NCBI GenBank assembly: GCA_963761705.1
Contig: CAVXHK010000003.1
Span: 577,455-641,454, forward strand
Source of the DNA: an uncultured Verrucomicrobiae bacterium
GTDB taxonomy: Bacteria; Verrucomicrobiota; Verrucomicrobiia; Chthoniobacterales; JAATET01
Length of the DNA: 64,000 nucleotides
Direction: 5' to 3'
Shown: positions 25,147 through 64,000 of the stretch, piece by piece
Position numbering within the stretch: position 1 is the first letter of the stretch
Layout of the letters: each line of letters opens with the position of its first letter
Notes under the pieces: generated by a model
The model's database searches: none
What the model was told of the DNA's origin: nothing
What the model saw: the letters and a program-made list of their open reading frames with translations, nothing else
Program-made: the position numbers and the translations under genes

Positions 25147-25838
25147 TGGCGATTCGTTGCATTCGGTCTGCCCGATTTTCTGAGTCGTCCTGCAGCAGTC
25201 TCGGACGGGCTTTGCCATCCTCCGCGAGTTTCTCGAGATCGGAGCGAAAAGGTCAGGGCAATTCCTCCGATCACGAGGAGGGCAATCACGCCCGGCTCAG
25301 GGACTGCGCCGGTGACAATGGGTTGGTTGAATTCGGTCTCGATGGCGTGGTCGACGAGGGTGAGGGTTGAATTTGGCCCGTCGTCGACGTAGGTGAAGCG
25401 CGCCCAGCCGAAGCGGGTATTGTCCTCGTCGGCACCGGTCATGAGTCCGATGAACCCGGTCGCGCCGCCGCCGTAGCCGCCGACGGTCTCGTTGAAGAGG
25501 TCCTGGTAGAAGAAGCCGTTGTTCTGGGCGGAGAGGAACGTCTTGTCGATGGTGACGCCTGGTCCGATGAGTGGGAGACCTTCGTTCGGGTTTGCGCGGA
25601 TGAGGCCGGTGAAGCCTTCGACCTCGGGCGAAGCGGGATCGTTGGAGAGGAAGAGGAGGCGGGCGTCGTTGCCGGGGCCGCCGCTGTAGTTGAAGAAGGC
25701 GTCGCCGCCGGTGGGGGTGATCGTGAGGTTGACCGGGCCGGAGTAGATGATGGCGGCGTGGGTGAATGGCGCGAGGGGGAGGATGAGGATGAGGCCTGCA
25801 GCGGTCGCGCCGAGTAATTTGAATGGCGTTGCGATCAT
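25143..25838 (-). CDS. PEP-CTERM domain protein
   Basis: Signal peptide and a C-terminal VPEPGVIALLVIGGIALTFSLRSR sorting motif (PEP + TM + basic). Its stop overlaps the autotransporter ATG as ATGA. Confidence 0.75.
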   Translation of the reverse strand: MIATPFKLLGATAAGLILILPLAPFTHAAIIYSGPVNLTITPTGGDAFFNYSGGPGNDARLLFLSNDPASPEVEGFTGLIRANPNEGLPLIGPGVTIDKTFLSAQNNGFFYQDLFNETVGGYGGGATGFIGLMTGADEDNTRFGWARFTYVDDGPNSTLTLVDHAIETEFNQPIVTGAVPEPGVIALLVIGGIALTFSLRSRETRGGWQSPSETAAGRLRKSGRPNATNRQ

Positions 25839-25860
25839 TTTGACGGTTCGCGGCGGCGGG

Positions 25861-27441
25861 TCAGCGTCGGAAGCGGCCGAAGGTGTAGCGGGGGCGGCGG
25901 GTGGTGTTGTCGTTTTCGACGAAGGCTTCGGTGTAGTCGTCGAAGTCGAAGTAGTCGTCGAGGGCGGGGAGGTTGAGTTGCCGGAACCGGGCGTCGCGGG
26001 CGTTGGTGAAGCGGGCGGCCCGGAGACCGGTGCGGTCTTCGCCCCGGGTCATGTAATAGAACGTGTCGCCGGAGAAGTGCCGGAGGATGAATCGCTGGCG
26101 GTCGGGGCCGATGCGCATGATCAGGCGATTGCCGCGGGCTTGGAGGCGGACGGGGCCGTAGAAGCCGCTCCGGTAGCGGCCGGCGTAGGAGGAGAGGGGG
26201 CGCGGTGGGGTGAAATCGGCGGGGCGGCGGCGGTAGTCGGTTGGGTCGCGACCAAGCTGGTCGGCAGCGAGTTCCGCGAAGCGCTCGTTGGCGAAGGCGA
26301 CCCAGTTGCGGCTGAGCTTGCCGAGGAAGAGGAAGTCAGCGAACGAGAAGTCGAGGCCTTCCGGGATGCCGTGCGGAGCGGAGTTGCAGAGGACGGCAAT
26401 GCCGAGATTTTCGGTTGGGTAAAGCGCGACGGCGGAGCGGACGCCCAGGAAGAATTCGCCGGAGTGGGACCAAACGGTGCGGTCGAATCGGGTGCCAACG
26501 TTCCAGCCCAGACCATAGAATCCGCCAGTGGTCTTGATCTGGGGGCGGTGGGTTTCGCCGAGGGGCTGGGCGGCAATGATCTGCCGGCCCTCGAAACGTC
26601 CGCCGTTGAGCTGGAGTCGCAACCAGCGCGACAGATCGCGAACGTTGGTGCTGACGCCGCCGGCGGGGGCTTGGGCGTCGGCGTTGCGACGGAAGCGGGC
26701 GACCCATTTTCCGTTCATGATAAAATCGTTGTCGTCCGGGGTATGCATGGCGGCCCGGTTGGGCGCGGACCGAAAGTCGGCTGAGCGCATGCTGGTGGAG
26801 GTCATGCCCAGAGGGTCGAACAGGCGGCGTTCCGCGATGGTGGGCCAGTCGGTGCCGGCCGCGGCAGCGGCGGCGAGTCCGCCCACGGTGAGCCCCATGT
26901 TCGAGTACTCGTAGCGGGAGCGGAATCCGCCGAGGAGGGGAAATTGGCGGAGGCGGCGGACGATCGGCGCTTGGGAAAAGCCGAGGTTTTCGAGGAGATC
27001 GCCGGCGTGAGGGGGGAGGCCGGTGCGGTGACTGAAGGCATCGCGGAGACTGACATTCCGGGTGGCGGCGGGATTGCTGAGGCGGAAATTGGGGAGGTTC
27101 CTGATGAGGGGCTCGTCCCAGGTGACGGTGCCGTCGCCGACGAGTCCGGCGACGATGGTGCTGGAGATGGGCTTGGAGACGGAGGCGATCTGAAAGACCG
27201 TGTCCGGCGTGACGGGCTGCGAGGTTCCCACTTTGCGAACACCGTAGCCCTTGAGGAAGATGACCTCGTCATTGTGAACGACCGCGATGGCCATGCCCGG
27301 AATCCCGGTCGTGCGCATGGCGCGCTCGGCGACGGCGTCCATGCGAAGGACGGCGGTTTGGACGGCTTCGCGACTGAGCTGGGCCGAGAGCGACGAGATA
27401 GCAAGGAGGCTGGCGAGAGTGGTGGCGAGGCGGGTTTTCAT
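25861..27441 (-). CDS. serine hydrolase, beta-lactamase/PBP4* family (secreted)
   Basis: Signal peptide and an SxxK motif (ASVSKP) about 70 aa in; 526 aa with a C-terminal extension domain. Confidence 0.8.
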   Translation of the reverse strand: MKTRLATTLASLLAISSLSAQLSREAVQTAVLRMDAVAERAMRTTGIPGMAIAVVHNDEVIFLKGYGVRKVGTSQPVTPDTVFQIASVSKPISSTIVAGLVGDGTVTWDEPLIRNLPNFRLSNPAATRNVSLRDAFSHRTGLPPHAGDLLENLGFSQAPIVRRLRQFPLLGGFRSRYEYSNMGLTVGGLAAAAAAGTDWPTIAERRLFDPLGMTSTSMRSADFRSAPNRAAMHTPDDNDFIMNGKWVARFRRNADAQAPAGGVSTNVRDLSRWLRLQLNGGRFEGRQIIAAQPLGETHRPQIKTTGGFYGLGWNVGTRFDRTVWSHSGEFFLGVRSAVALYPTENLGIAVLCNSAPHGIPEGLDFSFADFLFLGKLSRNWVAFANERFAELAADQLGRDPTDYRRRPADFTPPRPLSSYAGRYRSGFYGPVRLQARGNRLIMRIGPDRQRFILRHFSGDTFYYMTRGEDRTGLRAARFTNARDARFRQLNLPALDDYFDFDDYTEAFVENDNTTRRPRYTFGRFRR

Positions 27442-43912: not shown

Positions 43913-43960
43913 GGTCGGAAGGTCGGAAGGTCGGAAGGTCGGAAGGTCGGAAGGTCTGAG
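43913..43960. repeat. octanucleotide tandem repeat (GGTCGGAA)x5 plus one degenerate unit
   Basis: Read directly. It fills most of the 61-nt spacer between the upstream PilT-family gene stop (43966) and the pilT ATG (43904). Confidence 0.95.
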
Positions 43961-46818: not shown

Positions 46819-47808
46819 TTACGCCATGCGGGCGGCGGCTTCGCGGGTGATGGCGGCGTGGAGGGGTTCGTCAGCCAAGTAGCGGCGACATTCGTCGACC
46901 ATCACTTGGCCCATGCGGCGGCATTCGTGGTTCTGGCTACCGGCGATGTGAGGGGTGAGAATGACGTTTGGCATCGTGAGCAACGGCGAATCGTGCTCGG
47001 GTGGCTCTGGATGGGTGACGTCGAGGATGGCGGTGAGGTCGGGGCGGTCGCGGAAGACCTCGATGAGGGCGGGTTCGTCGACGATGGCTCCGCGGGCGGT
47101 GTTGATGAACGTCGCGCCGGTCTTCATCGACGCGAGGAGGTCGCCGGTGATGAGGCCGATGGTCTCGGGGAGGAGGGGCGTATTGAGGGAGACGACGTCG
47201 CTGCGCCGAAAGAGATCGGCGAGAGAAACGAGCTCGACGTCGAGTTCGTCGGCTTGGGCTTCGGTCAAAAAAGGATCGTAGGCGATGACGTTGTGCTCGA
47301 ATGGCGCGAGGTAGCCGCGCAGGAGGCGGCCGGTCATTCCCATCGAAACGATGCCGACCGTGGACCGGTAGTTGCCCGGGACGGAGACGCGGGTCGGCAT
47401 TTTTCCGAATTCGCGGAGGGCGGCGGGGTAGGTCCAGGCGCGTTTGTTCGCGAGGATGATCTGGGCGAGGTTGAATTCGGCGACCGGGATGGCGTTGGCG
47501 GCCCAGGCGGAACAGATGGTGATGCCGCGATCCCAAGCCGCATCAGTCGCGAAGGCCTTGATCGAGCCGCTGCCGTAGAAGACGACTTTTAGATTGGGCG
47601 CTGAGGCGAGGAATTTTTCGTCGAGTCGCCGCATACCCCAACCGGAGAAGATCGCCTCCGCTTCGGCGAGGGCTTGCGGGTGTTCGTCGACCGTCTCGGC
47701 GGTCAGTGGCGGAGCGGTGACTTCGACCATCTTCTCGATCTGGCCGCGCTCAGCGGGGCCGTAGATGTTGTCGAACTGGTTGGAGACGAGCAGATAGATC
47801 GCTTTCAT
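46819..47808 (-). CDS. D-isomer-specific 2-hydroxyacid dehydrogenase family protein
   Basis: Start ATG 47808 overlaps the upstream stop as ATGA. NAD-binding [10 protein letters not shown], then ARGAIVDE and a catalytic-His region TPHIAG. Confidence 0.85.
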
Positions 47809-49358
47809 TGGAAGGGGCGCACCGCGAGCGAAGCGAGAAGGTCGACGGTGGCCGGGACATCTTTGATGATCTGGCTGCGGAGTGGACCAACGCCGATGTA
47901 GCGGAGGTTGGGTGGAGCGTCCTGGGCTCCCGCAACCTCGATGATGGCGCGGAGGACGGTCGCGACGTAGCGCTGGGCGGAGGCGGGGAGATCGGCGAAG
48001 TGGCGGGTGTCGCTCAGGTCTTCGGACCAGCCTGGGACGTATTCGTAGACGGGGCGAAGGGTGCGGCGGAACGTATCGTCGCGAGGAACGTGGTCGACGC
48101 GTTCGCCGTCGAGGGTCTCGTAGGCTACGCAGATCGCGAGTTCGCCGTCGGTCCAATCGCCTGAGTAACTCAGGGCATCGAGTTTGTTGAGGACGAGGTC
48201 CTGGTAGCCGCCGTAGCGGAGGGCGTCGCCTTTTTCGACCGCGTCGAACCAGCCGACCATGCGTTGGCGGCCGGTGGTGGAGCCAAATTCGATGCGGCGC
48301 AGCGTGCGGCCAAGCGGGTGGTCGTCGGTGAGTTCGGTGAGAAAAAGGTGGGTGCCGACCTTGGTGTCGTAGGCTTTGCAGCAGCCGATGGTGTGGACGG
48401 GCTGGGCGGGGATGCCGGCGGATTGGAAAAATTCCGGCGTGAAGGTGTGGGAGGCGGTGACGTTAGGTGGGAAGCCGTGGCGTTTGTCGAGCCAGTAGGC
48501 TTGGCCGAATTCACCAAGGATCGTTTGGCCTCGCGCGAGGGCTTGGAGGGTGAGTTCGCGGACGTCGGTGACGCTGGCGACGAGGGCCTGGCCGGCTTGC
48601 CAGTAAGTTTCGACGAGGAGTTCGACGTCGAGGGTGAAGGGCGGACCGGCGTTGAAACGGGTGAAGTCAAATTCGGCGGTGGAAAAGAGATCGGCGGCGA
48701 GGACCTCGGCGTGGGCGCGGGTCTCGGCGGTGGTGAGCGTCTCGAACAGTCCGGCCCAGCGGTCGGGGGAGAGTTGGCAGACGTGCTCGATGACCGCGAG
48801 GGCACGGTTGACGCGGGCGCGGACTTTGCGGTCGAAGAGCGAACGGTCGGCTCGGAAGTCGGAGTAGGTGATTTGGAATTGGGAAATCTCGTCCGTGTAG
48901 GCCGGGGTGATGCCGCGCCCAGTGGAACCCCGGGGTTCTTCGGCGAGGATCTCGGTCCGATAAAATTCCCACGCGAGGTCGAGGAGGCGGTGACTGAGAT
49001 CGGAGACGAGGGTGCGTTCGTCGATGCGGAGGCGGGGGAGGGCGGTGTGGCCGTGGAGTTCGCAGTAGGCGGCTTCCCAGAGGAATTTGCGTGGATCGGC
49101 GACGACGCCGGCGCCGATGGTGAGGTGCGGAACGTGGGGATCGACGACGCCCCCGGGGATGAGATTCAGTTTGACGTCGCCGACGGAATGGCCGGAGTTC
49201 GAACCGCCGTTGACTTTCATGACGGCGGCGACGGCGTCGGGGCGGCCGGTGGACTCGCGAATTTCGTCGAGGACCTCGAGGATAACGCGACCCTTGCCCT
49301 CGTCGCCGGTGGAGATGCCGGTGTCGGCGATGAGTTGGGATGTGAATGGGGATAACAT
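47805..49358 (-). CDS. purA: adenylosuccinate synthetase family protein, unusually long (517 aa)
   Basis: GDEGKGR P-loop, GGSNSGHS (=GGxNAGHT), [17 protein letters not shown] (=EGAQG), KAYDTKVG and [15 protein letters not shown] (=TTGRxRRxGW). It is about 85 aa longer than the 432-aa E. coli PurA, mostly through a central insertion. Confidence 0.75.
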
Positions 49359-49363
49359 GAGTT

Positions 49364-49402
49364 GGAAGGTCGAAGGTCGGAAAGTCGAAGGTCAGGAAGT
49401 GG
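49364..49402. repeat. degenerate 7/8-nt tandem tract (GGTCGAA/GGTCGGAA-type)
   Basis: GGAAGGTCGAAGGTCGGAAAGTCGAAGGTCAGGAAGTGG, immediately 5' of the PurA-like ATG (49358) in the guaB-purA spacer. It is related to the 43913-43960 and 55687-55714 tracts. Confidence 0.8.
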
Positions 49403-52201: not shown

Positions 52202-54457
52202 TCAGCGTGGCTCGAGCCGGACGGCGCACGCCTTGTAGGCGGGCTGGCGGGACGTCGGGTCGACTTCGTTGCGGGTGAGTTCGTTGGTGACGCCGTAGTG
52301 CATCGGGAGGAAGACCTGGCCGGGTTGGACGATGGGGGTGACGCAGGCGCGGACGGTGATCGTGCCGCGGCGGGAGGTGACGGCGACTTGCGATTCGGCG
52401 GTGATGCCGAGGCGGGCGGCGTCGGCGGGGTGGATCTCGACGTAGGCGTCGGCGGGATAGAGTTTGCGGAGGACGTCGCTCTTGCCGGTGCGGGTCTGGG
52501 TGTGCCACTGCGAAGAGGTGCCGCGGCCGGTGAGGAGCGTGAAGGGATACTCGGCGTCGGGGGGCTCGGCGAGCGGGCGGGGGGATTCGAAGATAAAGCG
52601 GGCGCGGCCGTCGGGGTGGTGAAACTGGCCGTCCTGAAAGAGCCGACGCTCTTGATTTATGATTGATGATTTACCATTGATGATTTGGGAAGTTTGGGCT
52701 TCGCCCTGGGTATAAGGCCATTGGATGCCGCCTTCGGTGTCGAGGTGCTGGTAGTCGCGGATGCCGGAGATGTCGCAGGGTTGGTCGGCCAGGGCGCGTT
52801 TCATGATTTGGAACGCGGCCTCGGGGCTGGTCCACTCGGCGAAGAGGTCGCCGCAACCCCACGCCTCGGCGAGGACGCGGATGATGCTGAAATCACTCAG
52901 CGCCTGGCCGGGGGCGCGGCGGACTTTTTTGACGAGGCCGATGCGGCGCTCGGAGTTGATGAAGGTGCCGTCTTTTTCGCCCCAGCCGGCGGCGGGGAGG
53001 ACGAGGTCGGCAAGCTGGGCGGTCTCGGTGGAATGATACATGTCCTGGACGACGAGGTAGTCGAGCTTGCGAAGGAGAGCCTGGGCGCGCTTGGATTGGA
53101 TCCAGGAATGGGCCGTGTTCGTGGCAACGACCCAAAGGCCTTTGATCTGGCCCGTCTCGATGCCGTCGATGATCTGGTCGTAGGCGAGGCTGTCGTCGTG
53201 CGGGATACGGTCGACGGGGATCCGGAGGGCGGCGGCGACTTTTTCGCGGTCGGCGGCGCTCTGGAACTTATGGCCGCCGAGGAGGTTCGTCGTGCTGGAG
53301 AAAATGCGCGACCCCATGGCGTTGCACTGGCCGGTGATGGAATTTGCGCCGGTGCCGGGGCGGCCGATGTTGCCCGTCATCAAAGCAAGGTTGATGATGG
53401 CTTGCGCGGTGCGGGTGGCTTCGTGGCTCTGATTCACGCCCATCGTCCACCAGAACGAAACGCGCCGACCGCGGGCGATGGTCGCGGCGAGGTCGTGGAT
53501 TTGCGCGACGGCGAGGCCGGTGTCGGCGGCGACGCGCTCGGGCGTGAAAGTGGTGGCGAACGCGGCGAACTCCTCGAAGCCGGTGGTGTGGGCTTCGATG
53601 AAACGGCGGTCGACGGTGTCGATGGCGATGAGCAGGGCGGCGACGCCGTAGAGGAGGGCGAGGTCGGATTTTGGACGGAGCGCGAGGTGATCGGTCGCGG
53701 CCATCGCGGTCTCGGTGCGTCGGGGATCGATGACGATGATGCGCGGATCGTGGGGATTGCGCATGACGCGCTGCCACATGATGGGGTGCGCGACGCAGAG
53801 GTTGGAACCGACAAAAACGAGCACGTCGGACTCCTCGAAGTCGGCGTAGGTGTAGGGCGGGGCGTCGAACCCGAACGACTCTTTGTAGGCGGATACGGCC
53901 GTGGCCATGCACTGCCGCGTGTTGCCGTCACCGTGGCGGATCCCCATTCCAAACTTGGCGACCACTCCAAGGAACGCCATCTCCTCGGAGACAATCTGGC
54001 CGGTGCTCAGGAACGCGAGACTGTCGGGACCGTGCTCGCGCTGGATGCGCTGGAAATGATCGCGGAAGGCCGTGGCGGCGGTCGGCCAGTCCGACGGCTT
54101 CAGCTCGCCGGTTCCGGCGTCCCGGATGAGCGGGGTCGTCGCCCGGTCGGGTGCATCGAGAGCGGACAGGGCCTCCCATCCTTTCGGACAGGCCATGCCA
54201 AGATTGACCGGATACTCGGTGTCGGCGGAGAGGTTGATCGCCTCGCCGTCCTTGAGGTGGATTCGGAGCCCGCAGCCGGTCGCGCAGTAGCCGCAGACGG
54301 CGGTCGTGGTCGCGTCGGGCGTGAGGCGGGTGGGCACGGAGCCGAGCCCGAACGCGGCGGGGGACTGAACGAGGTCGGCCGTGAGCGGGCCGGTGCGGGG
54401 GCGGAGGAGGGAGTCGGTTGAGAGTTGAGAGTCGATGGCCGAGCGGAGTTTTGACAT
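52202..54457 (-). CDS. nasA: assimilatory nitrate reductase catalytic subunit (molybdopterin oxidoreductase, NasA/NarB type)
   Basis: N-terminal CGYCATGCG 4Fe-4S motif, MGD-binding domains and a C-terminal molybdopterin dinucleotide-binding domain. No twin-arginine motif in the N-terminus. Confidence 0.88.
52652..52689. repeat. AT-rich heptamer-periodic element inside nasA, in-frame (encodes [12 protein letters not shown])
   Basis: On the coding strand it reads AAATCAT CAATGGT AAATCAT CAATCAT AAATCAA. Nt 52655-52688 are 34/34 identical to 61306-61339, the nrtC-nrtD spacer. Confidence 0.9.
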
Positions 54458-54485
54458 GGCAAGTTAGTTGGCTGGGTTGTTGGCC

Positions 54486-54760
54486 TTGGAAACGTTGGTC
54501 AACGTGGCGGAGCTGAAAACAATTTGAGTAAGTATCTCGCGAGGGTGGCGGAGGGGGAGACGGTGGTGATCTGCAATGGGAACCTGCCGATCGCGCGGGT
54601 CGAGGAGGTCTTCAAAAAAAGAACCGCAGCAAGGCGGGATTTGATCCGAGGGTCAAAATTCTCGGCTCGCTCCATGGCCCGCTCATTCCCGAGGAAGATT
54701 GGAACATGCCGCGGGATGATTTCGATCCGTTGGCGTGTGCGCAGTCGCGAAGGCGAGTGA
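54486..54760 (+). pseudogene. orphan Phd/YefM-type antitoxin remnant with at least 2 frameshifts, antisense to the nas operon
   Basis: TTG 54486 gives LETLVNVAELKTI*. The next frame gives LSKYLARVAEGETVVICNGNLPIARVEEV..., and a third gives LGSLHGPLIPEEDWNMPRDDFDPL. Together these form a typical antitoxin if one A is added at aaaacaAtttgag and one at tcaaaAttctc. No toxin ORF follows. The end coordinate is approximate. Confidence 0.5.
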
Positions 54761-54810
54761 ATCTTCCAACTCCTATTCTCAAACACCCGCACGTCCATTC
54801 GATGAGATGA

Positions 54811-56358
54811 TCACGCGCCGCCGGGCATGCGGTGGGCGACGACGGTGGTGAAGAATTGGTGGCGCTCGATGCCCTCGCTCAGGACGAGAATGGCCATACC
54901 GACGACCGGGAGGAAGGGGAGCAGCACCGCGCCAAGGACGGCGGTCGCGTTGCGCAGCAGCACCTGCCGGCGAAGCGGGCCGCGGAGGAGCTGGGCCGAG
55001 AGGGAATCGTGAGACGGGTCGGCGGGCGCGGCCTTTGCGCGGAAGCGGGCTTCGGCGAGAAGTTTTGCACCGAGGATCAGAAGCGCGATCGGATAACAGG
55101 CCGCGACGGCGGCGGTCGCAAAGAGTGCAACGGTGCCGTAAAACCGGAAAGCGGTGCGCGGAAAGCGCCAGAGTTCGCGCTGGGTATCGGCGTAGACCAT
55201 CACCGATGTGAATACGCAAAGGATGCCGTAGAGCGCAGCCGGGATGCCAATGAGACGCGGAAAGATCACCGCACCAGCGACGAGCGGCGGGAGAGCGCCG
55301 AAGGCGACGACCTCGCGGCTTAACCACGAGCGCCGCAGCCCGAGGAAGACGCGCCAGGCTTTGAGCGGCTGACCGAGGTGGAGGACGCTGGCGGTGAGGC
55401 CGGTCATGAGCGCCGCTAGCGCGGCGCAGTTGAGGGTTGAGAGTTTGAAGTTGAGAGTTGGTGAGAGGGTGAGGGGGAAGCTTGCCGACGAGATCGTTGC
55501 CGCGAGGACGAGACCAACGGCGGCCTGAGTGAGGGTGAGCATGATGACCAGCGGGAGGTGGCTGTGCTCGAGGCGGGGGCGGCGGGCGTCGGCGCGGCTG
55601 GCAGAGGACGGGATAATCTTTTTGGTGACGTAGCGGGTGGTGGGTTGCGTGTAGCTGGACGTGATGACGCCAGGCAGAAGCTGACCTTCGACCTTCGACT
55701 TTGGACTTTGGACTGAGACGATTTGAATCGCTTCCGTCGGGCAGGCTTGCACGCAGGCGGGGGCTTCGCCGACGGCGAGCCGCGAATGACACATGTCGCA
55801 TTTGCGGACGATGCCCTTTTTTTTGGAATACTTCGGGACGTCGTAGGGGCACTTGAGGCTGCAGTATTGGCAGCCGATGCACTGGTCGTCCAAATGGCGG
55901 ACGATGCCGGTGATTTCGTCCTTCTCGTAGGCGAGGACGGGGCAGCCGTTCGCGCAGGCGGGGTCGGCGCAGTGGTGGCAGGCGGTGGTGACGGTCTGCT
56001 GATACGCGATGCCTTCGGCTTCTCCGAGGAGCATACCGACGTCGCGCCACGTTTCGTTTTCCTCGAGTCCGTTCAGGCTGTGACAGGCGGAGACGCAGGC
56101 TTTGCAGCCGGTGCATTTGTCGAGGTCGACCTCGAACGCGTATTGCTCGCCGGGTCCGGGGGCGGTGAGGGGAATGAGGTCGCGGTAATGCTTGGCCTGA
56201 GTCGGACTCGTCGCGTCGGCGTGGTGCTGGGCGAAGCGCTCGGCCGCGGTGAGGTTGCGTTGCTCGGCGAGGAGTTCGTCGATGAGGTTGGGGGGAGTTG
56301 TTGGTTGTTGGTTATTGGTTATTGGTGAATGCCGCTCCGCTGGAGTGAGAGTGTTCAT
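54811..56358 (-). CDS. 4x[4Fe-4S] ferredoxin (DmsB/NrfC-like) fused to a DmsC-like polytopic membrane anchor
   Basis: Start ATG 56358 overlaps the DUF4202 stop as ATGA. Cys clusters CTGCKACVSAC, CHHCADPACANGC, CIGCQYCSLKC and CDMC...CVQAC, followed by ~8 TM helices. Three heptamer tracts lie in-frame. Confidence 0.75.
   Translation of the reverse strand: MNTLTPAERHSPITNNQQPTTPPNLIDELLAEQRNLTAAERFAQHHADATSPTQAKHYRDLIPLTAPGPGEQYAFEVDLDKCTGCKACVSACHSLNGLEENETWRDVGMLLGEAEGIAYQQTVTTACHHCADPACANGCPVLAYEKDEITGIVRHLDDQCIGCQYCSLKCPYDVPKYSKKKGIVRKCDMCHSRLAVGEAPACVQACPTEAIQIVSVQSPKSKVEGQLLPGVITSSYTQPTTRYVTKKIIPSSASRADARRPRLEHSHLPLVIMLTLTQAAVGLVLAATISSASFPLTLSPTLNFKLSTLNCAALAALMTGLTASVLHLGQPLKAWRVFLGLRRSWLSREVVAFGALPPLVAGAVIFPRLIGIPAALYGILCVFTSVMVYADTQRELWRFPRTAFRFYGTVALFATAAVAACYPIALLILGAKLLAEARFRAKAAPADPSHDSLSAQLLRGPLRRQVLLRNATAVLGAVLLPFLPVVGMAILVLSEGIERHQFFTTVVAHRMPGGA
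55430..55464. repeat. heptamer tract (TTGAGRG-type x5) in-frame in the membrane domain
   Basis: TTGAGGG TTGAGAG TTTGAAG TTGAGAG TTGGTGA, which encodes ...LSPTLNFKLSTLN.... Confidence 0.8.
55687..55714. repeat. heptamer tract (TTCGACC x2, TTGGACT x2) in-frame at the ferredoxin/membrane-domain junction
   Basis: Encodes VQSPKSKVEGQ between ...ACPTEAIQIVS and the first TM region. Confidence 0.85.
56298..56325. repeat. heptamer tract (TTGTTGG x2, TTATTGG x2) in-frame near the N-terminus
   Basis: Encodes ...SPITNNQQPTT..., 11-20 codons after the start. Confidence 0.85.
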
Positions 56359-56987
56359 GATGAGGCGAGCGCCTCGTTGAGGATCGACGCGGCCTCCGGG
56401 GAGACGGGGATGGCGGCGGCGAAGGCGTGCGCGGCGGGGGACATCTTTTTCCAGGTCTTGCGGAGGATCGTGACCAGTTGGTCGCGATTCGTTTTGTCGA
56501 TGAGCGCGTCGAGTTGTTGTTCGATGGTGACGAGGCAAAGGGCGTCTTCGAGGGTTTGCGTGTCGGGGTCGGTGCCGAGGTGTTCCTTGAGGTTGAGGGA
56601 GCGGACCCGGTCGATCAATTCGGTGTCGTAGCCAGCGGCGGCGAGGATGCCGGTCGCGGTGTCGGCGTGGAGGCGCTTGAGATTGGCTCGCCATTTGAGG
56701 TAACCGGGGCGAGTCATCGGGTAGGACGAACGCGGGACGCGCCACCGGGCGATGTGCTGGCAGCGGGCGGCGAGGCGAAGGGGTTCGGAGGGGGTGGGGT
56801 CAAGTTGGTGGACCCAGTGGGTGAGGCGTTGGGAATAGAAGAATTCGAAGGGGATGGGGGTCCCATCGACCTGGGCAGTTCGGGGGTCTTGGGCATTTTC
56901 CTCGTCGATTCTTGAAATGGCTTCTTCGAAGCGAGGGGAACGAGACCGGCTGGAAGCCGGTGCTACTCTGGGTTCAATACACATCAC
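56355..56987 (-). CDS. DUF4202-like protein
   Basis: RFEEAISRIDEENAQDP...RCQHIARWRVPRSSYPMTRPGYLKWRANLKRLHA matches my memory of DUF4202, which often neighbours nitrite/sulfite reductases. ATG 56987 overlaps the upstream gene by 14 nt. Confidence 0.55.
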   Translation of the reverse strand: MMCIEPRVAPASSRSRSPRFEEAISRIDEENAQDPRTAQVDGTPIPFEFFYSQRLTHWVHQLDPTPSEPLRLAARCQHIARWRVPRSSYPMTRPGYLKWRANLKRLHADTATGILAAAGYDTELIDRVRSLNLKEHLGTDPDTQTLEDALCLVTIEQQLDALIDKTNRDQLVTILRKTWKKMSPAAHAFAAAIPVSPEAASILNEALASS

Positions 56988-58734
56988 GTTGGTAGCGTTT
57001 GTTTGTTTTCAGGTCGGCTACGTAGGCGGCGGCTTCCTCTTCGGTTTTCCCTCCGGCGGTTTGGACGACTTGGTGGAGCGCCTCGTCGACGTCCTTGGCC
57101 ATGCGTTTGGCGTCGCCGCAGACGTAGAAATGCGCGCCGTCCTCGAGCCACGCCCAGAGGTCGGTCGCCCGCTCGATCATCCGATTCTGGACGTAGATTT
57201 TATCGGCCTGATCGCGGGAGAAAGCGGTGTCGAGGCGGGTGAGGTGGCCGTCCGCGAGAAAGGTTTCGAGTTCGTCCTCATAGAGAAAATCGGTGGCTGC
57301 TCTCTGGTCGCCAAAGAAGAGCCAGTTTTTTCCAGTTGCGCCGGTGGCTCGGCGATCATGGAGGAACGCGCGGAACGGCGCGATGCCGGTGCCGGGACCG
57401 ACCATGATCATCGGCGTGTCGCCCGACGGCGGGAGCCGGAAGCCTTTGGAGACCTGAACGAACACGGGGATCGGCCCCGTGACGCGGTCGGCGAGGAAGG
57501 TGGAGCAGACGCCCTTGCGCCCGCGACTGAAGCTGTCGTAGCGGACGGCGGCGATGGTGAGGTGGACTTGGTCGGGGAAGGCGTTGAGGCTCGACGAGAT
57601 TGAATAAAGCCGCGGCTGGAGCTTGCGAAGGTGGGACACGAAGTCGGCGGGCGTGAACGTGACGCCGGGGAAATCGACGAGCAGGTCGACGACCTCGCGG
57701 CCCCAGAGGTAATGCGCGAGCGCCTCCTTGGCTTCGGGGACCACGAGGTCGGCGAGCGTTTTGTCGGAGCTGCGTTCGGCGATGGCGTCGAGGAGCTGGG
57801 CGGGAATCCTGGTGATCTCGTAATCACGGACGAGGGCATTGCGGAGCGGGGCTTCGCCGCCTTCGGGCGTGGCCACGGCTTCCTCGCCGTCGCAATTGAG
57901 AGCGTGGAGGATCTCGTCGACGACGGCGGGGCAGTTCGACGGGATCACGCCGAGGGCGTCGCCGACTTCGTAGGTGAGGCCGGAGCCAGTGAGGTCGATT
58001 TCGAAGTGGCGGACTTCCTTGGCGGACGTGTCGGCGGTGAGCTTGCGGTTGGTGATGAGTTTGGCGGGGAAGGGGTGCTTTCTCCCGTAGGCGGGAGCAG
58101 GATTGATGATTGATGATTGATCATTTATGATTTGGGGAATGGCGGCTTCGCCGATTGGGAACTCGACCGACTCCAATGCGGTGAAGACGGCTTCCTGCCA
58201 GGTGGCGGCGGACTCTTCGTAGTCGACGTTGCAGTCGACTCGCTCGTAGAGGCGGCTGGCTCCGAGGTCGGTGAGGCGGGTGTCGACGTCGACTCCAAAT
58301 TTGCAGAACGCCTCGTAGTTCGTGTCGCCGAGGGCGAGGACGGAGTATCGGAAATTTTCGAGTCGCGGAGCCGTGTCGGCGATGAGTTCTTCGTGGAAAT
58401 CGTGGGCGTTGGCGGGTGGCTCGCCGTCGCCGAAGGTGCTCGTCACGATGAGGGCGACGGGCACGTTGGCTAAGTCCGCGACTTTGACTTTGTCGAGGCC
58501 GATGGCACTGGATTCCCAGCCGCGCTTCTTGGCGGCTTTGGCGATTTGTTTGGCCAGAGATTCGGCGTTGCCGCTTTCCGTGCCGAAGTAGATCGGGACC
58601 GTTTTTTTCGGGGCTTCGAGGGCCGCGGGAGTCGCGTCGTTGCCGGAGAAGACGCCCGCGAGGAAGCCGTTGAGCCAGGCGCGCTGCTCGGTCGAGAACG
58701 GAGCGGTGTCGGGAATGAAGGGTGCGGTGCTCAT
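56974..58734 (-). CDS. diflavin reductase (sulfite-reductase flavoprotein CysJ-like)
   Basis: Flavodoxin domain (IYFGTESGNAE, TFGDGEPP) plus an FAD/NADPH domain (RLYSISSS, MVGPGTGIAPFRAF, C-terminal ...YQRDVY). Confidence 0.85.
   Translation of the reverse strand: MSTAPFIPDTAPFSTEQRAWLNGFLAGVFSGNDATPAALEAPKKTVPIYFGTESGNAESLAKQIAKAAKKRGWESSAIGLDKVKVADLANVPVALIVTSTFGDGEPPANAHDFHEELIADTAPRLENFRYSVLALGDTNYEAFCKFGVDVDTRLTDLGASRLYERVDCNVDYEESAATWQEAVFTALESVEFPIGEAAIPQIINDQSSIINPAPAYGRKHPFPAKLITNRKLTADTSAKEVRHFEIDLTGSGLTYEVGDALGVIPSNCPAVVDEILHALNCDGEEAVATPEGGEAPLRNALVRDYEITRIPAQLLDAIAERSSDKTLADLVVPEAKEALAHYLWGREVVDLLVDFPGVTFTPADFVSHLRKLQPRLYSISSSLNAFPDQVHLTIAAVRYDSFSRGRKGVCSTFLADRVTGPIPVFVQVSKGFRLPPSGDTPMIMVGPGTGIAPFRAFLHDRRATGATGKNWLFFGDQRAATDFLYEDELETFLADGHLTRLDTAFSRDQADKIYVQNRMIERATDLWAWLEDGAHFYVCGDAKRMAKDVDEALHQVVQTAGGKTEEEAAAYVADLKTNKRYQRDVY
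58101..58136. repeat. AT-rich heptamer-periodic element in-frame in the flavodoxin-FNR linker (encodes QIINDQSSIIN)
   Basis: On the coding strand it reads AAATCAT AAATGAT CAATCAT CAATCAT CAATC. Confidence 0.9.
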
Positions 58735-58738
58735 TGGC

Positions 58739-60496
58739 TTAGTTCGTGAAGATTTCCTGCAGTTCGCCGACCGAATGCCGGGCCGTGAAGTCGCCGAAGG
58801 TCTCCGTGCCCTCGCGGCGTGCGAGGTAGGTTTTCAGGACGCCTTCGAGCAGCGCCGGGAGCTGCGGAAACGGAATGCCGGTGAAGACTTGGCGTCCGAT
58901 CATTTGCCCGCCGATGCTGCGTCCGCCGAGGACGACGTGGTAGCCGTCGACCTTCGCGCCGTTGTGGCTGACCTGGGCGCCGAGGAGGCCGATGTCGCCG
59001 ATGTAGTGCTGGGCGCAGGAATTCGGGCAACCGGTGAGGTGAATGTTGATCGGCTGGTCGAGGGTGAGCTTTTTCTGAAGGTGATTGGCTAATTCCAGCC
59101 CCTGCGCCTTGGTGGCGGATTGCGCCCATTTGCAGCCAGCGCTGCCGGTGCAGGCGATGAGGCCGCCGAGGATGGCGGTGGCTTCGTGGTGGAAGCCCAT
59201 GCGGACGAGGCTGCGCTTGACCGTCTCGACGAAGCCGTCGCTCACGTCGGGAACGAGGACGTTCTGCCAGACGGTGAGCCGGAGGTGGCCGGATCCGTGG
59301 TTCGCGGCGAGGTCGGCGAGCCGGTGCATCTGGCGGGAGGTCATCGTGCCGACGGGGGTGACGACGCCGACGTAATTGAGGTGTGGCTGTCTCTGACGCC
59401 AGACGCCGATGTGCGCGTGGGGGATCGGCGGGTGGGGTGGGGCGCAGGCTTCGAGGGGGAATGGGGTCAGCGGGAAGGCGAGTTTTTTCTCCGTTTCTTC
59501 GAGAAATTTCGGGATGCCCCACTGGTCGACCAAGTATTTGAGGCGCGCCTTTTTGCGGTTGGTGCGGTCGCCGTTTTCGGTGAAGACGCGGACCATGGCG
59601 GCGGCGACGGCGATGGCGTCGGCGGGTTTGACGAGGATGCCGGAGTCGGTGGCGAATTGCTCGTGGCCGGTGATGCCGCAGAGTTGAACGCGGAAGTAGA
59701 CGCCGGGCTCCACGGATTTCCCCTCGGGGACGCGGACGGCGAGGAAGCCGATGTCGTTGGTCTCGGCGACGGTGGCGATGGCGCCTCCGCCCTCGAAGGC
59801 GATGTTGAACTTCCGCGGCAGCTCATACATGTCGCGGTTGTTGAGGATGTAATAGTGCATTCCCTTGGCGAGCGGGCGGGTGTCGAGGAACTCGCCACGG
59901 TCGATGCCGCCGGTGGCCGACGCCGTGATGTTGCGCAGATTATCCACGCCGGATCCACGGGCGGTGAGGCCGAGGTCCTGCAATTTATTGAGCACGTTGA
60001 TCGTGTTCTTCGGCTCGATCTCGCGGATCTGCAGGTTGGCGCGGGTCGTGATGTGCGCGTATCCGCCGCCCCAGTCGTGCGCGATTTCCGCGATCCCGTG
60101 GAGTTGCGCGGACGTGAGTTCGCCGCCGGGGATCCGCATTCGCAGCATGAACGACTCCTGCACCGGGCTGACGTGGAAGAGGCCGAAATTGCGAAACTGA
60201 AACGTGTTGCGCTTGTCGGGAAGTTTGTTCTCCCGCGCGTGCTCGGCGAGGTCGTCCCACGTGTCGAGTCCGCTCTGCTCGTGCTTCCAGACTTCCTGCT
60301 CGCACAGGTCCTCGATCGGGGTGCCGTGGACCGTTGCCTCCGCGAGGTTCGGCGCGCCGGAGTCGGGGTCGCTGGTAAGGAGGCCGTCCGACTGCCGCCC
60401 GACGAAGGGTGCCCGCTGCGCGGCTCCGGCGAAGAAACCTTGCAGGTATTCCTTCTGTTCGGCGGTGAAGGGTTGAGTGGGCAGTTCGCTCATCAC
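58739..60496 (-). CDS. nirA: nitrite/sulfite reductase hemoprotein (siroheme-[4Fe-4S], NirA-type)
   Basis: Two NiR/SiR repeats and the Cys cluster CTGSAGC...LTGCPNSC. The + ORF 59120..60499 is its antisense shadow. Confidence 0.85.
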   Translation of the reverse strand: MMSELPTQPFTAEQKEYLQGFFAGAAQRAPFVGRQSDGLLTSDPDSGAPNLAEATVHGTPIEDLCEQEVWKHEQSGLDTWDDLAEHARENKLPDKRNTFQFRNFGLFHVSPVQESFMLRMRIPGGELTSAQLHGIAEIAHDWGGGYAHITTRANLQIREIEPKNTINVLNKLQDLGLTARGSGVDNLRNITASATGGIDRGEFLDTRPLAKGMHYYILNNRDMYELPRKFNIAFEGGGAIATVAETNDIGFLAVRVPEGKSVEPGVYFRVQLCGITGHEQFATDSGILVKPADAIAVAAAMVRVFTENGDRTNRKKARLKYLVDQWGIPKFLEETEKKLAFPLTPFPLEACAPPHPPIPHAHIGVWRQRQPHLNYVGVVTPVGTMTSRQMHRLADLAANHGSGHLRLTVWQNVLVPDVSDGFVETVKRSLVRMGFHHEATAILGGLIACTGSAGCKWAQSATKAQGLELANHLQKKLTLDQPINIHLTGCPNSCAQHYIGDIGLLGAQVSHNGAKVDGYHVVLGGRSIGGQMIGRQVFTGIPFPQLPALLEGVLKTYLARREGTETFGDFTARHSVGELQEIFTN

Positions 60497-61303: not shown

Positions 61304-61340
61304 TTATTTATGATTGATGATTTACCATTGATGATTTGGC
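61304..61340. repeat. AT-rich heptamer-periodic element filling the nrtC-nrtD intercistronic spacer
   Basis: The 42-nt gap between stop 61345 and ATG 61302 is essentially this element. 61306-61339 is identical to 52655-52688. Confidence 0.9.
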
Positions 61341-63138: not shown

Positions 63139-63176
63139 TTTATTTATGATTTACCATTTATGATTGATGATTTGGG
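63139..63176. repeat. AT-rich heptamer array, left boundary of the four-helix-bundle cassette
   Basis: TTTATTTATGATTTACCATTTATGATTGATGATTTGGGG. Nt 63142-63165 match the reverse complement of 63527-63550 at 23/24 positions. Confidence 0.9.
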
Positions 63177-63184
63177 GTGAGATC

Positions 63185-63541
63185 ATGAATCGGGATCAAC
63201 TGGCGGCTCGGACGAAAGAGTTTGCGAAACGCGTGCTGAGGGTGGCTGAGGCGTTGCCGACTGGTTACGCGGGGCGGACGATTGGGAATCAGATCTGCCG
63301 AAGCGGGTGTTCGGTGGCCGCGAACTACCGGGCGGCTCTGCGCGGGAAGTCCCGAGCCGACTTTGCCAATAAGATCACCGTCGTTCTCGAGGAGGCGGAC
63401 GAAACGATGTTCTGGCTCGAAATGATCGACGAAATGGACCTGCTTCCGAAGAGCAAACTCGAGCCCCTCCTCGGCGAAGCCGGAGAGCTGGTCAAGATCT
63501 TCGGAGCAACCCTCGCCACCACCAAAAATCATAAATCGTAA
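63185..63541 (+). CDS. four-helix-bundle protein (23S rRNA IVS protein / Avd-like family), full-length copy 1
   Basis: 118 aa: MNRDQLAARTKEFAKRVLRVAEALP...GNQICRSGCSVAANYRAA.RGKSRADFANKI..VLEEADETMFWLEM. The family pattern (F...v......P........Q..RS..SI.AN..EG....S..DF..k......E..ET..WL) is recognisable. It lies antisense to the nrt operon. Confidence 0.8.
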   Translation: MNRDQLAARTKEFAKRVLRVAEALPTGYAGRTIGNQICRSGCSVAANYRAALRGKSRADFANKITVVLEEADETMFWLEMIDEMDLLPKSKLEPLLGEAGELVKIFGATLATTKNHKS

Positions 63542-63560
63542 ATCATAAATCATAAATCTA
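63526..63560. repeat. (AAATCNT)x5 heptamer array, right boundary of copy 1
   Basis: AAATCAT AAATCGT AAATCAT AAATCAT AAATCTA. It overlaps the last codons and the stop of copy 1. Confidence 0.95.
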
Positions 63561-63562
63561 AC

Positions 63563-63856
63563 GTGGCGTTGCCGACTGGTTACGCGGGGCGGACGATTGG
63601 GAATCAGATCTGCCGAAGCGGGTGTTCGGTGGCCGCGAACTACCGGGCGGCTCTGCGCGGGAAGTCCCGAGCCGACTTTGCCAATAAGATCACCATCGTT
63701 CTGGAGGAGGCGGACGAAACGATGTTCTGGCTCGAAATGATCGACGAAATGGACCTGCTTCCGAAGAGCAAACTCGAGCCCCTCCTCGGCGAAGCCGGAG
63801 AGCTGGTCAAGATCTTCGGAGCAACCCTCGCCGCCACCAAAAATTATAAATCGTAA
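63563..63856 (+). CDS. four-helix-bundle protein, 5'-truncated tandem copy 2
   Basis: Homology to copy 1 begins at 63566 (=63251). It lacks the first ~22 codons, and GTG 63563 is a possible start. I count 4 substitutions over ~290 nt versus copy 1. It may be non-functional. Confidence 0.6.
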   Translation: MALPTGYAGRTIGNQICRSGCSVAANYRAALRGKSRADFANKITIVLEEADETMFWLEMIDEMDLLPKSKLEPLLGEAGELVKIFGATLAATKNYKS

Positions 63857-63882
63857 ATCATAAATCATAAATCATAAATCTA
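63841..63882. repeat. (AAATNNT)x6 heptamer array after copy 2
   Basis: AAATTAT AAATCGT AAATCAT AAATCAT AAATCAT AAATCTA, one unit more than after copy 1. Confidence 0.95.
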
Positions 63883-63884
63883 AC

Positions 63885-64000
63885 GTGGCGTTGCCGACTG
63901 GTTACGCGGGGCGGACGATTGGGAATCAGATCTGCCGAAGCGGGTGTTCGGTGGCCGCGAACTACCGGGCGGCTCTGCGCGGGAAGTCCCGAGCCGACTT
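63885..64000 (+). CDS. four-helix-bundle protein, 5'-truncated tandem copy 3 (partial; runs off the right edge)
   Basis: Sequence from 63888 repeats 63566 onward, with the same junction CTAACGTGGCGTTGCCGAC. Confidence 0.55.
   Translation, partial: MALPTGYAGRTIGNQICRSGCSVAANYRAALRGKSRAD

Follow-up and report, generated by a model that had tools for sequence, protein, structure and literature searches.

Background

According to the passages of PMC4679880 and PMC4692102 that treat the survey of Mrazek et al. 2007, heptanucleotide repeats are the most abundant class of long simple sequence repeats (LSSRs) in many bacterial genomes, with polymerase slippage offered as a hypothesis, and coding regions are expected to hold repeats with unit lengths divisible by three. 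The present analysis concerns a gene in a stretch of 64,000 nucleotides (nt) from an uncultured Verrucomicrobiae bacterium (assembly GCA_963761705.1, contig CAVXHK010000003.1, positions 577,455 to 641,454; hereafter the window). The gene joins a ferredoxin module (Fer4_11) and a DmsC-like membrane anchor in one reading frame, and it contains three in-frame tracts of period 7, one of them at the junction of the two modules. Coordinates refer to the window unless another locus (L001 to L081) is named, and those of the main features are collected in Table 1.

The arrays of the window and its relatives resemble the heptanucleotide LSSRs, as far as these are characterised in the two sources, in that they consist of direct tandem 7-nt units, in that period 7 is over-represented with respect to other non-triplet periods and slippage is proposed, and in that they change fast in length and sequence between relatives. 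A mostly intergenic location may be a further shared trait. In contrast to the LSSRs of those accounts, a third of the arrays here lie in open reading frames (ORFs), in frame and recurring at the same interdomain linkers phylum-wide, and their length is constant while the units homogenise. Verrucomicrobiota are not mentioned as a repeat-rich group in the relevant part of PMC4692102, nor are they among the taxa named in the passages of PMC4679880 in question; a literature search for heptamer repeats in Verrucomicrobia gave nothing specific. This phylum, and notably its nitrate-assimilation operon, lends itself to studying why 7-nt repeats are favoured in bacteria, a question that dates from the 2007 survey.

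Direct repeats of TAACTGA occur in Beggiatoaceae, Cyanobacteria and Bacteroidetes, and the sections of PMC4679880 (MacGregor 2015) that deal with them propose that they serve, in front of start codons, as landing pads or as binding sites for regulators. Present there in two to six copies, they lie, like the arrays here, mostly a few nucleotides ahead of a start codon, where a Shine-Dalgarno sequence is often absent, and a minority are found in ORFs, in their case at the protein periphery. The TAACTGA system has one specific unit, whereas 56 units are found among 81 arrays here, and these occupy internal domain linkers of conserved enzymes as well; neither TAACTGA nor TCAGTTA is among the 56 consensus units.

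Heptamer repeats with the units GGGAATC and GGGGAYT are known from Xanthomonas and Nostoc (Rehm et al. 2015, PMC4692102). They are G-rich and quadruplex-prone, whereas those of the present sample are enriched in AT (mean GC 44%, against about 60% for the genomes); the coding strand of tracts 1 and 3 has almost no G. The cyanobacterial STRR heptamers (reportedly described by Mazel and co-workers in 1990; PMC4692102 refers to them as the Calothrix heptanucleotides) are likewise G-rich and quadruplex-prone. Both groups are similar to the arrays here in that positions are kept between related species while length and sequence vary widely, and in that some form inverted pairs. The Rickettsia palindromic elements (RPEs), reportedly described by Ogata and co-workers in 2000, are palindromes of 100-150 bp with a family consensus that lie in frame in genes. 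Like the arrays here, they are short dispersed repeats that occupy both intergenic sites and, in frame, surface or linker positions of conserved proteins, with function kept. Unlike RPEs, the tracts are direct heptamer arrays of 28-35 nt without a common sequence, and palindromic form is seen only in the NasA genes of L001 and L074.

With respect to the proteins, the DmsB/DmsC, NrfC/NrfD and PsrB/PsrC pairs of Mo-bisPGD enzymes also combine a four-cluster ferredoxin and an anchor beside a molybdopterin catalytic subunit. Unlike these pairs, the two modules form a single chain here, their partner is NasA-like and of the assimilatory type, and the operon adds NirA-like, CysJ-like and DUF4202 genes. 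The departures from the described heptamer systems are the diversity of the units, the frequent in-frame placement in domain linkers inside conserved enzymes, the length-neutral concerted turnover of units and the occurrence in a Verrucomicrobiota lineage.

The fusion gene and its homologues

In the 515-amino-acid (aa) protein the best Pfam stretch of Fer4_11 (2.9e-21) covers residues 123-214, a DmsB/NrfC-like module with four [4Fe-4S] clusters, and the match to TIGR02951 (DmsB-like) covers residues 72-220. The polytopic membrane anchor module (PF04976, DmsC; 1e-11) follows in the same polypeptide at residues 267-417, and its predicted model has at least eight helices, mostly with a high predicted local distance difference test score (pLDDT). 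The nearest relatives of the ferredoxin half in the PDB are FdnH (1kqf_B), ArrB (6cz7_B) and PsrB (2vpw_B). Sixteen cluster cysteines form four motifs of the CxxCxxCxxxC type (C82, 85, 88, 92; C127, 130, 135, 139; C160, 163, 166, 170; C187, 190, 202, 206), and all of them are invariant in an alignment of 17 sequences (A1).

Such modules are normally encoded by separate genes, and the preliminary description had called for verification of the single ORF because of indel errors that it saw elsewhere in the assembly. The latter are not confirmed: the members of the four overlapping pairs of stop-to-stop ORFs are different genes, and of nine ORFs scanned, eight have full-length Pfam matches and one (25143-26048) matches no family. 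For the fusion gene itself, the best 120 of 8000 homologous proteins are 456-567 aa long and nearly all have both PF13247 and PF04976; the sequences of A1 align colinearly over the whole length that follows residue 24 (approximately). Relatives are encoded in 573 of 600 stretches of species-representative genomes. Of these stretches, 80 were kept; they mostly match residues 24-514 (approximately) in one frame, two of them (L022 and L072) being truncated; almost all of these loci are labelled Verrucomicrobiota, isolate genomes are included, and the best identity to the window gene is 63%. A close relative from an independent assembly, L001, reads in frame through all three tracts with an identical linker length. 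Relatives were also compared, as had been proposed, for split and fused versions. Fusion is the rule, and split genes of the dmsB/dmsC type are found only in distant relatives, namely in Proteobacteria (E. coli and Azospirillum, about 27-35% identity). A single tblastn piece had misleadingly suggested a fused gene in Azospirillum; the annotation gives a separate 273-aa 4Fe-4S gene, i.e. a split arrangement.

To judge from these homologues, the fusion gene is genuine and intact. That the true sequence consists of two genes parted by a spacer has a negligible probability: an a-priori rarity of such fusions in model organisms is all that was found in its favour, and the colinear fused homologues, in isolate genomes too, and the independent agreement of L001 in frame and linker length speak against it. 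A false alarm is thereby removed, and the fused ferredoxin/anchor ORF should be annotated as one gene. Three homologues (P0010, P0016 and P0042) carry the NCBI name 'DmsC/YnfH family molybdoenzyme membrane anchor subunit', with Verrucomicrobiota or Chthoniobacterales among the sources so named.

A run of eight A's is observed within the ferredoxin module at 55816-55824 on the - strand (TCC AAA AAA AAG GGC), with an in-phase A AAA AAG at 55816-55822, which is a classical -1 frameshift motif. L001 has nine A's at the equivalent site. The encoded KKK is not kept in farther homologues, and homopolymer sequencing errors are likely at such a run.

The three tracts

All three period-7 tracts of the preliminary description are recovered by direct reading of the sequence, by Tandem Repeats Finder (TRF) and by a lag-7 scan. 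On the + strand tract 1 reads (TTGTTGG)2(TTATTGG)2, and TRF places it at 56297-56326 (period 7, 4.3 copies, 95% matches). Tract 2, found on the coding strand within ...SVQSPKSKVEGQ..., appears in TRF as two abutting perfect sub-arrays, GACCTTC x2.4 at 55683-55699 and GACTTTG x2.6 at 55697-55714. Its location and period are as first described; the second of its + strand units is not, the full series being TTCGACC, TTCGACT, TTGGACT and TTGGACT. Translation bears out the peptide VQSPKSKVEGQ assigned to it, and it does lie exactly at the junction, between the Fer4_11 and DmsC matches. It is also related, as proposed, to the array upstream of purA, with which it shares the 12-mer CTGACCTTCGAC in opposite orientation. 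Tract 3, of the TTGAGRG type on the + strand, extends over 55428-55460 in TRF with 4.7 copies, 78% matches and 14% indels. A common coding-strand form NNNNCAA, also put forward earlier, applies to some units and fails for CCAATAA and GGTCGAA.

The tracts coincide with the three most variable, gapped segments of A1, i.e. the N-terminal tail, the interdomain linker and the loop between the first two transmembrane helices (TM1 and TM2); the tail is unalignable among the homologues. In an AlphaFold model based on the 17-sequence alignment, the pLDDT is below 50 at residues 1-23 and 220-240 and dips at 291-300. Two of the tracts thus map to low-confidence parts of the model. The ferredoxin half of the model has low confidence (pLDDT 33-59), and disorder is supported for residues 1-23 and 220-240 only.

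The longest perfect runs are about 2.4-2.7 units in each tract. By computation, the gain or loss of one or two units at any of the tracts leaves a truncated protein, and with three units the frame is kept. The X XXY YYZ form of a programmed -1 frameshift site is absent from the units, which form tandem arrays instead.

Comparison with a close relative

L001 has the same operon and 84% nucleotide identity in the fusion gene, and it carries an array at every orthologous site. Tracts 1 and 2 are 28 nt long in both, with different units. In tract 1 the unit order is AABB in the window and ABBB' in L001, and in tract 2 the (GTCCAAA)2(GTCGAAG)2 of the window corresponds to (GTCGAAA)(GTCGAGG)3. Tract 3, an imperfect CTCTCAA-type array in the window, is in L001 a perfect 14-nt doublet, (ACTCTCAACTATAA)2, with an adjacent 6-nt in-frame indel. 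The same is seen outside the fusion gene. At the hinge of the CysJ-like protein, the CAATCAT units of the window are replaced by CAATCAC/CAGTCAC units, L001 having (CCAGTCACCAATCA)2 in the corresponding position. The CTCTCAA units in the N-terminal tail encoded by the NasA-like gene give way to about four CTCTCGA units in the same 7-nt register.

Units have therefore changed in concert at four orthologous arrays, with length changes only where the frame permits. Such parallel change of neighbouring units is a prediction of unit turnover and not of independent point mutation, and gain and loss of units under a frame constraint would give the observed combination of parallel unit changes with a constant total length.

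Recurrence at the same linkers

Among 78 orthologues of the fusion gene, strong arrays of period 7 are present in 10 sequences, arrays of period 6 and of period 9 in one sequence each, and arrays of periods 4, 5, 8, 10, 11 and 12 in none. The strong heptamer arrays number 14, from several genera: 10 are in the linker between the Fer4 and DmsC modules, three in the N-terminal tail and one in a loop. The linker units are GTCSARR in the window and L001, CAATCCN-like in Luteolibacter, Haloferula and Akkermansiaceae, and CAACYCN in others; CGGAACG is found as an extra array in L073. At least three or four separate array types thus occur at this one junction. Non-triplet 7-nt microsatellites, usually deemed to be intergenic or to act as frameshift switches, can therefore be the dominant tandem repeat inside coding sequence.

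An array is present in the linker of about 12% of the orthologues. The other 68 have an ordinary linker without a strong array, most commonly of 23 aa, which in several orders is non-repetitive and carries a weakly conserved V..EEV...A......LLPG motif. Because most orthologues have such a linker, the array at the junction seems to be a derived state and not left over from the fusion.

Other genes of the operon show the same behaviour. Arrays are found in the NasA linker (from 'IQWP' to 'ERRLFEDG') in the window, L001, L013, L039, L074 and L075, in the FMN/FAD hinge of CysJ in the window, L001 and L020, and near residue 255 of NirA in L059 and L068.

Period-7 arrays across Verrucomicrobiota

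Exact runs of period 7 number 10 in the window, against 2.2 in shuffled sequences, and those of periods 4, 5 and 8 are near expectation. The same preference is seen in a sample of 1.41 Mb from 82 Verrucomicrobiota loci (the window and 81 others). Stringent arrays number 56 at period 7 and 40 at its multiple 14, compared with 1 at period 5, 11 at period 6, 4 at period 8, 9 at period 9, 0 at period 10, 1 at period 11 and 12 at period 12; every period from 4 to 13 other than 7 has 0-12. A small control of 200 kb from Azospirillum plasmids and E. coli K-12 contains none, although the verrucomicrobial density would predict about 8. Inside the fusion gene period 7 exceeds even the frame-compatible periods 6, 9 and 12; therefore the bias is one of array generation and not of selective tolerance.

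A relaxed threshold yields the 81 arrays with 56 different consensus units mentioned above (mean GC 44%), a diversity that speaks against a single sequence-specific binding motif. Their placement differs from that of random points: 48% lie between ORFs (25% of random points), 17% at ORF 5' ends (9%) and 35% inside ORFs (63%), i.e. 65% against 34% are intergenic or at ORF starts. The tandem-repeat scan proposed earlier for enrichment at boundaries is thus positive in this sample, in which related species are not independent. Tracts 1-3 all belong to the depleted ORF-internal class.

The arrays are also unevenly distributed along the loci. In the 42 full-length 21.5-kb loci among L002-L081, 28 of the 49 arrays lie at 8-14 kb, about three times denser than in the outer flanks; in the window, 11 (seven from the array scan, the rest from TRF) lie at 47-64 kb against one or two at 0-47 kb.

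The longest perfect heptamer array observed, (AGGTTAG)7.7 at L037 8892-8945, reaches a contig end, and arrays of this kind may break assemblies. Heptamer tracts in general are likely trouble spots for gene callers, aligners and assembly-polishing tools.

Origin of the tracts

The tracts are probably heptanucleotide simple-sequence arrays with a slippage-type turnover, tolerated and translated where the sequence is unconstrained. Units of 7 nt would be gained and lost at the DNA level by slippage, in a phylum in which such arrays are abundant throughout, and tract 2 may have started in place, from codons such as GTC GAA G.. of a V-E-E-V linker motif. The arrays would persist only in nearly unconstrained sequence, such as spacers just upstream of starts, disordered N-terminal tails, interdomain linkers and loops. 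Those inside genes would simply be translated into a low-complexity spacer peptide rich in Q, S, N, P, T and K, with the frame shifting from unit to unit since 7 and 3 have no common factor. Selection would purge variants whose net length breaks the frame, so that orthologous arrays would keep their length while the units homogenise. Both slippage as the generating process and near-neutrality are inferred here. Arrays of 7-nt units would in this way be raw material for interdomain linkers, with selection on the frame turning slippage into length-neutral turnover of units.

Several observations weigh against so simple an account. The arrays crowd around the nitrate-assimilation operon, which tolerance alone does not explain. 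The 34-nt CCAAATCATCAATGGTAAATCATCAATCATAAAT is identical (34/34 nt) in the in-frame NasA linker array (52655-52688) and in the intercistronic array at 61306-61339; the two sites are 8.6 kb apart, and orthologous flanks differ by about 16% between relatives. Related AATCATN arrays are found at 58099-58132, 63139-63172, 63527-63560 and 63842-63882. At the NasA site L001 holds a wholly different AT-rich insert of 86 nt (13499-13584) with two inverted arrays 7 nt apart, which looks like copying or replacement and not like local slippage; one arm (13542-13579) recurs nearly identically in intergenic sequence at L001 19755-19780. Near-identical copies at unrelated sites are thus known for the AATCATN family and this L001 family, and tracts 1-3 have in this respect only the 12-nt match of tract 2. 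Inverted partners within 700 nt are present for 20 of the 81 arrays, some of them flanking cargo genes. Finally, the Verrucomicrobiales linker peptide LF(Q/S)SxI(H)NPQSxIPxSSI, which is (CAATCCN)n read in three frames, is semi-conserved even in sequences that have lost the DNA periodicity, which hints at an acquired constraint. The identical copies, the inverted pairs, the arms around PF05635 genes and the clustering at the operon give a dispersed-element or a functional origin some probability.

The tracts might instead be solo arms or remnants of small hairpin-type elements (inverted arrays), inserted or copied into spacers and in-frame linkers, some copies with cargo, by analogy with in-frame palindromic elements. 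Identity over 34 nt between a coding and an intercistronic site against the divergence of the flanks points in this direction, as do the mutually unrelated NasA-linker inserts of the window, L001 and L074, where L074 has at 13349-13587 an in-frame insert of about 95 aa between IQWP and RRLFEDG with nearly perfect 36-nt inverted heptamer arrays at its ends. Inverted 7-nt-periodic arms with lineage-specific units flank all four PF05635 genes found (window, L001, L020 and L034). In the window this gene, encoding a four-helix bundle like the 23S rRNA intervening sequence (IVS) protein, occupies 63185-63541 (+) among nitrate-transporter genes and is tandemly duplicated in a 315-nt unit x2.4 (63185-64000, reaching the window end), for which reason the right arm recurs. 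Arms also enclose a segment of about 600 nt in L006, and CCAACAN and CTCTCAA, the unit types of tracts 1 and 3, serve as hairpin arms in L056 and L073. Against such an origin, tracts 1-3 themselves have no inverted partner within 700 nt, they are orthologous and of conserved length in L001 and so inherited rather than recently inserted, the 56 units of the 81 arrays have no common element sequence, and no target-site duplications, transposase or integrase were found. Apparent cassettes of about 1 kb between inverted arrays in L042 and L061 resolved into a normal ABC ATPase gene whose flanking spacers hold arrays, the look-alike cassette ends of L042 being such spacers; mapping of the nrtB-nrtC junction had been confounded by paralogous ATPase domains. 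We regard this origin as rather unlikely. The same low probability is given to the wider proposal of an undescribed Verrucomicrobiota class of heptamer-periodic elements, occurring solo, as hairpin pairs and as pairs flanking PF05635 or other small cargo, and copied between sites. Such a class would colonise spacers and in-frame enzyme linkers, chiefly in the nitrate-assimilation operon, with tracts 1-3 as members and not passive products of slippage, and it could be domesticated as linker peptide, as in the Verrucomicrobiales linker of the QSxIxNP type. A role at the RNA or translation level, i.e. landing pads or regulator sites upstream of starts, or rare-codon pausing at domain boundaries (for example a ribosome pause before membrane insertion of the DmsC module), is less probable still. 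In its favour, many arrays stop a few nucleotides short of a start codon and leave no Shine-Dalgarno sequence in the gap. Codon adaptation over 9 codons is lowest at the AT-rich arrays in NasA and CysJ and at tract 1 in the fusion gene; the recurrence at the same junctions across genera, the clustering around the operon and the semi-conserved Verrucomicrobiales peptide would also fit. However, the units are extremely diverse, an array is in the linker of only a small minority of orthologues, tract 2 at the junction is outside the six least codon-adapted windows, no in-frame ATG, GTG or TTG follows it, and Rfam gives no family match in the 47-64 kb part of the window (E<=1). The notion that tandem arrays are necessarily unstructured RNA was rejected, since predicted folding is slightly stronger in the arrays than in shuffles of matched composition (mean z -0.5). 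The minimum free energy of 0.0 kcal/mol for tracts 1 and 3 is due to their near-zero G content and not to periodicity.

Two further explanations concern the junction and the frame. Tract 2 could be a former heptamer spacer between a dmsB-like and a dmsC-like gene that came to be translated on their fusion, as may be suggested by the unit family that it shares with the intercistronic array upstream of purA, by the preference of arrays for spacers in this phylum and by the split versions in distant relatives. This is very unlikely, because most orthologues of several orders share the non-repetitive linker, from which the array looks derived, because no split orthologue was found in the 573 verrucomicrobial stretches, and because the NasA linker and the CysJ hinge also hold arrays, though their architectures match long-established curated families. 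The least probable of these alternatives, for which we see hardly any chance, is phase variation, in which a slip of one unit would shift the frame and turn the anchor or the whole subunit off (a contingency locus). The computed effect of a change of one or two units agrees with this, and heptanucleotide repeats drive phase variation in some pathogens (e.g. PMC2651432). In contrast, the short perfect runs are a poor substrate for slippage, the copy number is identical in L001 in spite of the sequence divergence, the operon is one of housekeeping nitrate assimilation, and similar arrays are present in non-coding spacers.

The operon and other features of the window

Table 1. Genes and heptamer arrays of the window, with PF05635 homologues of other loci
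Feature	Position	Strand	Remarks
Fer4_11+DmsC fusion gene	54811-56358	-	Stop-free translation, 515 aa, both Pfam matches, full-length fused homologues
Tract 1	56298-56325	-	(CCAATAA)2(CCAACAA)2 on coding strand, codons 12-21 (PITNNQQPTT), N-terminal tail
Tract 2	55687-55714	-	(GTCCAAA)2(GTCGAAG)2 on coding strand, codons 215-224, interdomain linker
Tract 3	55430-55464	-	Imperfect CTCTCAA-type array (7/14-nt period), codons 299-310, TM1-TM2 loop and start of helix 2
NasA-like molybdopterin oxidoreductase	52202-54457	-	Partner catalytic subunit; Pfam; adjoins fusion gene
NasA linker array	52655-52688	-	AATCATN type, 14-nt period; in frame, AT-rich, between Molybdopterin and Molydop_binding domains (variable)
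NasA N-tail array	54417-54432	-	(CTCTCAA)2; TRF; orthologous array in L001
DUF4202 gene	56355-56987	-	Upstream operon gene
CysJ-like flavoprotein	56974-58734	-	Upstream operon gene
CysJ hinge array	58099-58132	-	(ATCAATC)n; in frame, between flavodoxin and FAD-binding domains
NirA-family reductase	58739-60496	-	Upstream operon gene
purA-upstream array	49364-49402	-	GACCTTC/GACTTTCC type; ends 5 nt before purA ATG; tract 2 unit family, opposite orientation
Array between nitrate-transporter ATPase genes	61306-61339	-	Intercistronic; ends 4 nt before ATG
Left arm of inverted pair around PF05635 gene	63139-63172	.	(AAATCAT)n type
Right arm of inverted pair	63527-63560	+	(AAATCAT)n, 3' end of PF05635 gene; repeated at 63842-63882
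PF05635 homologue	L001 2741-3094		
PF05635 homologue	L020 2583-2927		
PF05635 homologue	L034 20156-20476		

The nitrate-assimilation cluster is entirely on the - strand and includes two genes for ABC ATPases of the nitrate-transporter type, one of them fused to an NMT1 domain. The ATG of the fusion gene overlaps the stop codon of the upstream DUF4202 gene (ATGA), an overlap also present in L001, where the gene order of the operon is identical (L001 6445-14039). The window and L001 both have a molybdopterin oxidoreductase gene next to the fusion gene, as do 55 loci with a NasA match in tblastn. This make-up (52202-60496) implies a membrane-anchored nitrate reductase of the assimilatory type. 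No twin-arginine signal is recognisable by eye on the NasA-like protein.

A typical verrucomicrobial Fer4-DmsC/NasA operon (48% identity) is also found in L078, a metagenome-assembled genome labelled 'uncultured Bifidobacterium sp.'; this contig is probably mis-binned or mislabelled. In L006, the inverted arrays at 17116-17753 surround a low-GC segment with a small ORF resembling a signal peptide, and the right-arm unit is TGGTCAT/TTGGTCA, which matches a classical cyanobacterial STRR heptamer.

The PurA homologue at 47805-49358 (-) is 517 aa long and its Pfam match is in two stretches, the second at residues 234-498 against profile positions 171-416, which suggests an internal insertion of perhaps 60-90 aa relative to typical adenylosuccinate synthetases. 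At 43913-43956, a perfect 8-nt tandem array, (GGTCGGAA)5.5, is observed where two T2SSE/PilT-like ATPase genes adjoin, either in the opening codons of the downstream gene or in its upstream region.

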